IMG/VR virus record: IMGVR_UViG_2740892028_000001
Span: 1-13,634 of that record
Length of the DNA: 13,634 nt
Strand: one strand, 5' to 3'
Source: a virus
Lineage: Duplodnaviria > Heunggongvirae > Uroviricota > Caudoviricetes
Part shown: piece after piece, positions 12,822 to 13,634 of the stretch
How the letters are laid out: each line of letters begins with the position of its first letter
How positions within the stretch are numbered: position 1 is the first letter of the stretch
The notes under the pieces: model-generated
Databases searched by the model: none
Told to the model about the DNA's origin: nothing
The model's input: only the letters and a program-made list of their open reading frames with translations
Translations under genes and position numbers: made by a program

Positions 12822-13559
12822 TTAACTCGGCATTAAGTCTGCCGGTGACTGTGGTGGTGACTGGAATTGCTGTTGTTGTGACTCGGCGACATCTTTCAGA
12901 AGGCGTATTGCCTCCATCACTGCTTTGTCATCGATGTTTCTGGCTTGAGCCAGTTTATAGACAGTGTTTGCCTGACTCTCCATCGCATCCTGCTGGGCAG
13001 TAAATGCTTTGATTTGAGTTTGAGCGGTTTCGTTAGTTGCTTTTTGCGCTTCTGCCTGCGCTGCTACCATTTGCGCCTGAGCGAGAACCATTTCAGGATT
13101 TGGCTGGCTTTGTGCTGCCATTTGCGCCTGTTGAACAATCTGCTGCTCTTTCTCATTGCGTGGTTTTGCAATGCCAGATATCAGCAGTTGGTTTCGGTTG
13201 TACTCTTTGAAGTCATCAAGGCCTTCGCCATCGATATTGTCCAGAATAATACCCTGAATTGCCGGGCGCATTGGGTCTGTTGGAAGCATAGAGCTAAGGA
13301 CATTTGTCAGTACAGAAACCGTTGCATCACGTCGTGCTGTGTAGCTTGGTCCAACATCAACCGTCACATCATATCGACCGACAGAAAGGTCATTTAACGC
13401 AACAACTGCCCCTGTTTGCCTGTCAACAACCTGTGCGCTCAAGACAGCGATATCATCACTTCCATCTTCGTTAACGATGCGCACTTCACGCTCTGAACCG
13501 TACACTTCACGAGCCATTGACAGCCATACTTCACCAGCGCGTTTAAGACTTTTCGCCAT
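12822..13559 (-). CDS. Portal protein, C-terminal 245 codons only (core end plus Gln/Ala-rich helical barrel); upstream frame is interrupted
   Basis: Pattern EDGSDDIAVLSAQVVDRQTGAVVALNDLSVGRYDVTVDVGPS aligns with the P22 portal region as I recall it, and the Q/A-rich tail fits the portal barrel. The same frame has TGA at 13628-13626; only another minus-strand frame is open to the window end. The complete portal gene would extend past 13634. Confidence 0.7.
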   Translation of the reverse strand: MAKSLKRAGEVWLSMAREVYGSEREVRIVNEDGSDDIAVLSAQVVDRQTGAVVALNDLSVGRYDVTVDVGPSYTARRDATVSVLTNVLSSMLPTDPMRPAIQGIILDNIDGEGLDDFKEYNRNQLLISGIAKPRNEKEQQIVQQAQMAAQSQPNPEMVLAQAQMVAAQAEAQKATNETAQTQIKAFTAQQDAMESQANTVYKLAQARNIDDKAVMEAIRLLKDVAESQQQQFQSPPQSPADLMPS

Positions 13560-13634
13560 ATTGTCCAGATTGAACCGCCCCGGGTTTCCTGGAGAGTGTT
13601 TTATCTGTGAACTCAGGCTGCCAGATCATTGTTT

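Follow-up and report, generated by a model that had tools for sequence, protein, structure and literature searches.

Evidence that an IS629/IS1203-type element interrupts the portal gene of a P22/Sf6-like Escherichia coli prophage

The window analysed here (the whole stretch of DNA, 13,634 bp) ends in a portal gene that breaks off near its last bases, and we are highly confident that the break was caused by a 1.3-kb element of the IS629/IS1203 type that inserted into the portal gene of a P22/Sf6-like E. coli prophage. Three lines of evidence carry this reading: the identity of the last 64 bases of the window with an insertion sequence (IS) end, the abrupt loss of portal similarity where those bases begin, and the recovery of the reciprocal junction, with a matching target-site duplication, from another contig of the same assembly.

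Results

The portal remnant at the window end

To place the break, we aligned the window end to an intact reference portal gene, that of E. coli GN04171 (WP_000852334.1, 708 aa, 2127 nt, L012:4623-6749). This alignment revealed 749/749 identity over window positions 13570..12822, with the similarity stopping sharply at 13570, inside codon Tyr460, and 0 bases continuing upstream. The preliminary description, made from the letters of the DNA, had taken the portal gene to be interrupted near the window end and the 245-codon open reading frame (ORF) there to be a portal C-terminal region, and both statements are borne out: the ORF matches profile positions 426-594 of 594 in Pfam PF16510 (P22_portal; E = 5.5e-48), and the remnant belongs to this family and is collinear with intact portals, as a fragment and not as a complete member. 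The 245-aa ORF is thus part of a portal, with no gene of its own. In a three-frame translation of the minus strand over 12700-13634, the frame of this ORF holds a TGA at 13628-13626, with 22 codons between this stop and the ATG at 13559, the second minus-strand frame holds a TGA at 13615-13613, and the third is open from the window edge to a TAA at 13545-13543; these stops, like the CCGCCCCGGG run at 13575-13584 (+ strand), lie exactly where they had been reported.

Database comparisons of 12822-13634 divided the stretch in the same way. Megablast against phage records matched query positions 62-813 to the portal genes of Sf6, HK620, N7 and relatives (98.8-99.1%) and query positions 1-68/70 to unrelated places in Stx-converting phages. 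Among complete E. coli genomes, the portal part was found in 222, and the first ~64 bases hit sites annotated as IS3-family transposase in the tens of thousands. The exact IS-portal junction was absent from complete RefSeq E. coli genomes, in which the sole match with 100% coverage was strain 98224, with its IS at another site in the portal.

Table 1. Features of the window and IS ends found in portal genes of public assemblies. Positions are those of the window unless given as portal nucleotides (portal nt).
Feature	Position	Strand or orientation	Remarks
P22-type major capsid (coat) gene, intact	10641..11912	-	PF11651, E = 3.3e-142, full profile length
Scaffolding protein gene, intact	11924..12808	-	PF09306, E = 2.2e-9; directly downstream of portal remnant
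Portal gene, 3' part (P22/Sf6-like)	12822..13570	-	nt 1379-2127 of 2127; codon Tyr460 to the stop after residue 708
245-aa ORF	12822-13559	-	begins at portal Met464, first in-frame ATG downstream of the IS
ATC, downstream copy of the 3-bp target-site duplication	13568..13570	-	portal nt 1379-1381
Right end of IS629/IS1203-group (IS3 family) element, 64 nt	13571..13634	-	transposase oriented like the portal gene; + strand reads TGAACCGCCCCGGGTTTCCTGGAGAG...
IRR, terminal inverted repeat, ~25 bp	13571..13595	-	contains CCGCCCCGGG; left end TGAACCGCCCCGGAAATCCTGGAGA vs right end TGAACCGCCCCGGGTTTCCTGGAGA of the same element type
IS transposase orfB, last six codons and stop (NNDLAA*)	13613..13633	-	its stop is the second-frame stop, 13615-13613
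P22-type tailspike, cut after 275 codons	1-825	-	head-binding domain
P22 immI-like region	926-2097	-	upstream of tailspike
Antirepressor	926-1870	-	Bro-N and P22_AR_C domains; after the Arc-family repressor
Arc-family repressor	1873-2097	-	PF03869, E = 2.7e-30
IS10 end	portal nt 1310		L034:1-201, L035:1-27; exposed by a 272-aa C-terminal fragment
IS end, presumably IS600-like	portal nt 1312		L014:1-29
IS end without assigned type	portal nt 1326		L015:1-29
IS629-type end	portal nt 1351		L017:1-54, L019:1-52
IS629-type end	portal nt 1361	opposite	L021:1-30
IS629-type end	portal nt 1369		L002:1-111
IS629-type end	portal nt 1372		L004:1-44
IS629-type end	portal nt 1379		this prophage

The last 64 bases are an IS end

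Window positions 13571-13634 (+ strand, TGAACCGCCCCGGGTTTCCTGGAGAGTGTTTTATCTGTGAACTCAGGCTGCCAGATCATTGTTT) were identical at 64/64 positions to the right terminus of an IS3-family element, 1310 bp long, in E. coli ATCC 11775 (L033) and at 63/64 to that of a PGAP-annotated 1310-bp IS1203 copy (L001:6437-7746). This 64-mer alone occurred at 24,656 places in 4,070/5,426 complete E. coli genomes (E = 1e-24). Counted from the right end, IS positions 43-45 hold the orfB stop in both the reference copy and the window; the annotated IS1203 orfB terminates ...YYASIGNDDLAA*, and the C-terminus reads ...GNDDLAA* in the reference annotation and NNDLAA* in the window. Because of the 64/64 identity and this coincidence of the orfB stop, we read 13571-13634 as an IS end. 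The IS ends, of the 5'-TG...CA-3' type, begin TGAACCGCCCCGG and agree in terminal identity with the IS629/IS1203 group; the 25-bp extent that we give for the right inverted repeat is our own reading from comparing two IS ends. Complete reference copies are 1310 bp long with an annotated programmed frameshift and AL1L pseudoknot, and the window has only the last 6 codons and stop of orfB.

The reciprocal junction lies on a second contig of the same assembly

Searched for by exact match, the 245-aa product showed that the window is the entire draft contig LRWH01000074.1 (13,634 bp) of assembly GCA_001561435.1, and its edge is therefore an assembly break inside a multicopy repeat. Short-read assemblers commonly break at multicopy IS elements, with contigs overlapping by about one k-mer within the collapsed repeat. 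To find the other side of the break, we predicted the truncated portals that would result from target duplications of 0-5 bp, each read through into the IS left end, and looked these up by exact match in a protein collection. Predicted N-terminal fragments starting at Met1, as RefSeq does (708 aa), had no exact match there, because the gene caller of the collection starts the portal at Met13 (696-aa forms, as seen in L013:1673). With this start, the 3-bp (ATC) model, portal M13-Y460 followed by LNRPGNPGD, gave an exact match (P0136) that had been predicted blind, and the models with 0-, 1-, 2-, 4- and 5-bp duplications gave no exact match in the collection. When the predicted 469-aa fragment was used as the query of a homology search, the cluster representatives found were all full-length portals or portals truncated in other ways.

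The predicted fragment is encoded on LRWH01000116.1 (3,076 bp, L029), which belongs to the same assembly, GCA_001561435.1. On this contig, portal nt 1-1381 (0 mismatches) run directly into 65 nt identical to the IS1203 left end at 65/65 positions, and the contig terminates ...GCTTCGTTTATCTATC|TGAACCGCCCCGGAAATCCTGGAGACTAA... The two junctions read ...GGTTCA|ATCTGGACAAT in the window and ...TTTATCTATC|TGAACCGCC in LRWH01000116.1, compared with TTTATCTATCTGGACAAT in the intact gene, so that both contain ATC (portal nt 1379-1381). A duplication of this size fits the IS629/IS1203 group, as target duplications of 3-4 bp are reported for IS629 (PMC3271280). The 5' junction was also found in the Logan assemblies SRR12779467, SRR12779475 and SRR12779484, with one contig common to 15 samples, and this recurrence in independent runs argues for a heritable insertion over an assembly accident. 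For the window-side junction, none of ten N-terminal extensions of the 245-aa ORF was in the collection, so support from independent runs is confined to the 5' junction.

Proposed insertion event

Since both junctions were recovered with a matching ATC duplication, we interpret the event as a simple transposition. On this reading, an IS3-family element belonging to the IS629/IS1203 group, 1310 bp in length, transposed into the portal gene between nt 1378 and 1382 (codons 460/461), in the orientation of the portal, duplicating the 3-bp target ATC. The 5' piece encodes portal residues 1-460 plus nine IS-encoded residues (LNRPGNPGD) before a stop, giving a 469-aa product, and the 3' piece is promoterless, its first ATG, Met464, opening the 245-aa ORF. 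The multicopy IS broke the assembly, such that the window stops 64 nt inside the right end and its partner 65 nt inside the left end. All three stops are accounted for by this event: the TGA in the ORF frame as an incidental triplet within the IS, that in the second frame as the transposase stop, and the TAA as an out-of-frame stop within the portal, met by the frame that stays open through the IS end. Both ends probably belong to one intact 1310-bp copy, a length and intactness taken from other copies of the element. The insertion also looks recent, to judge from a remnant that is still 100% identical to intact alleles. In P22, the portal is needed for procapsid assembly and DNA packaging, and because it is essential there, the prophage would be expected to be unable to form virions.

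Alternative explanations

The preliminary description had proposed a frameshift in roughly 13560-13625, perhaps at the CCGCCCCGGG run, as either a sign of a defective prophage or a sequencing error. A +1/-1 frameshift or homopolymer error in the portal coding sequence would explain the three-frame stop pattern and nothing else, and such events do befall this gene: in a different genome, a Logan contig (SRR11939528, L013:1673-3765) has ACGGTGACAACAACTTG in place of ACGGTTAACAACTTG at portal nt ~1335, a gain of 2 nt that leaves the gene as two ORFs of 437 aa and 254 aa. In the window, however, alignment to the intact portal revealed no frame switch. In a frameshifted pseudogene, homology to the parent gene resumes past the break in another frame. 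Here there is no portal similarity upstream of 13570 in any frame (...GATATGGCTTCGTTTATCT in the intact gene, ...AAACCCGGGGCGGTTCA in the window), the 64 nt past 13570 are 100% IS sequence, and the 5' part of the portal (nt 1-1381) is found on a different contig, where it runs into the opposite end of the IS. The suspected CCGCCCCGGG run is itself part of the IS terminal inverted repeat. We thus give the frameshift almost no weight; of the two outcomes offered with it, the defective prophage stands, as the portal is split, and the sequencing error falls to the reciprocal junction with its 3-bp duplication in the same assembly. Just as improbable is that the 245-aa ORF represents a separate conserved gene for a free-standing portal C-terminal domain. 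Its exact product is indeed called on 11 contigs from several sources, but what precedes it there is either the start of the contig or an IS end at another position close by, and the same DNA forms the 3' third of the 2127-nt portal gene in complete genomes.

A chimeric IS-portal join at the contig end, with an intact portal in the real genome, might be suspected from a junction only 64 nt from the end of a contig in a short-read draft assembly. Such an artefact would not yield two reciprocal junctions with the correct IS left and right ends and a perfect 3-bp duplication, nor would it recur at the 5' junction in independent SRA runs, and no contig with an intact junction region was returned from GCA_001561435.1; we consider it very improbable. 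Somewhat less remote, although still unlikely, is an IS-mediated rearrangement, with the 3-kb terS'-terL-portal' segment flipped or moved elsewhere by recombination between IS629-type copies of opposite orientation. LRWH01000116.1 is flanked by two inward-facing IS left ends, that is, by inverted copies 2.9 kb apart, and inversions of this kind alter no junction sequence, with short-read contigs blind to the orientation of the segment between. Against such a rearrangement, the matching ATC duplication marks a simple insertion as the original event, to which an inversion would be an extra one.

Other parts of the prophage

The insertion lies in an otherwise well-preserved structural region. The window retains intact genes downstream of the portal remnant for scaffold, coat, gp4, gp10, needle, gp14 and the gp7/gp20/gp16 ejection proteins, followed by arc/ant and the start of the tailspike, and the scaffold-portal gene order is the same in intact prophages. 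The arc/ant genes form a region resembling P22 immI. At the other end of the window, positions 1-600 match single-copy tailspike genes, at up to 98.5%, in 20 complete genomes, and the contig end at position 1 is therefore not in an IS.

The first 65 nt of LRWH01000116.1 (L029:1-65) are an IS629/IS1203 left end in inverted orientation, adjoining the last 50 codons of a small-terminase gene, whose remnant reads YYPPDTTAAIFWLKNRQKDKWRDK...STLFGK*. This IS left end inside the small-terminase gene means that a second IS copy resides in the same prophage, the two copies being mutually inverted and 2.9 kb apart. The small-terminase remnant had no exact match to the GN04171 allele; local alignment revealed a diverged allele in which only the last ~90 nt match.

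A related prophage in E. coli 98224 (L001, NZ_CP173472.1:4123226-4132728) also has a portal split by an IS3-family element, at another place. There a group II intron (ltrA) sits inside the portal IS, and another complete IS1203 copy separates the scaffold gene from the coat gene.

A possible insertion hot spot in the portal gene

Across public assemblies, we observed eight independent IS insertion points within portal nt 1310-1381, involving at least four IS types (Table 1). It is doubtful that this 72-bp stretch is a real multi-element hot spot. Our look-ups were keyed to the exact ORF product and so were able to detect disruptions only in ~nt 1300-1390, and ascertainment is the most likely cause of the clustering; IS hits spread evenly through a very large database would fit the data just as well. 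C-terminal fragments of 321 aa and 337 aa proved to be contig-edge partials without IS sequence, and hence provide no baseline for a hot spot.

Discussion

By our observations, the locus is best annotated as a pseudogene of the portal, broken by insertion of an IS629/IS1203 element, and the prophage as carrying at least two IS copies; annotating the locus as a frameshift, a sequencing error or a 245-aa gene would be inappropriate. Beyond this prophage, stops near a contig end together with a G+C-rich 'run' can signal the terminal inverted repeat of a collapsed IS, and a prediction of the truncated protein sometimes leads to the reciprocal junction on another contig. The pair of contigs behaves like known contig breaks at collapsed IS repeats, as the partners here likewise stop 64-65 nt inside the IS.

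In E. coli and Shigella, IS629, IS1203 and IS3411 belong to the IS elements with the highest activity, and IS-inactivated prophages are a textbook category; as a mechanism of prophage defect, IS insertion is already known and ordinary. The broken gene itself is of the Sf6/HK620/P22 type (PF16510; WP_000852334.1), with remnant DNA that equals the common E. coli allele over the 3' 749 nt and reaches 98.8-99.1% identity with the portal genes of Sf6 and HK620, from which it differs in being split after Tyr460 with neither piece complete. Among IS629/IS1203 variants, the right end here has the ATCC 11775 form and the left end the IS1203 form of strain 98224, and we name the element at group level.

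IS1203 and IS3411 are isoforms of IS629, and in four O157:H7 genomes 62% of IS629 copies were located in prophages or prophage-like elements (PMC3271280). According to a further study, the position of IS629 in Stx prophages changes strain behaviour (PMC10810198). Viewed against the 'grounded' or cryptic prophages inactivated by mobile elements (reviewed in PMC6379469), the prophage studied here is alike in its well-preserved structural cluster and its IS-hit portal and small terminase, with nothing distinctive about it. The closest likeness is to the prophage insertions described for IS629, IS1203 and IS3411 (PMC3271280), which ours resembles in its ends (64/64 and 65/65), its 3-bp duplication, its prophage target and its multicopy element, whereas it differs from IS629 in O157:H7 in that the target is a P22/Sf6-like portal and not a lambdoid Stx phage or the O157 backbone.
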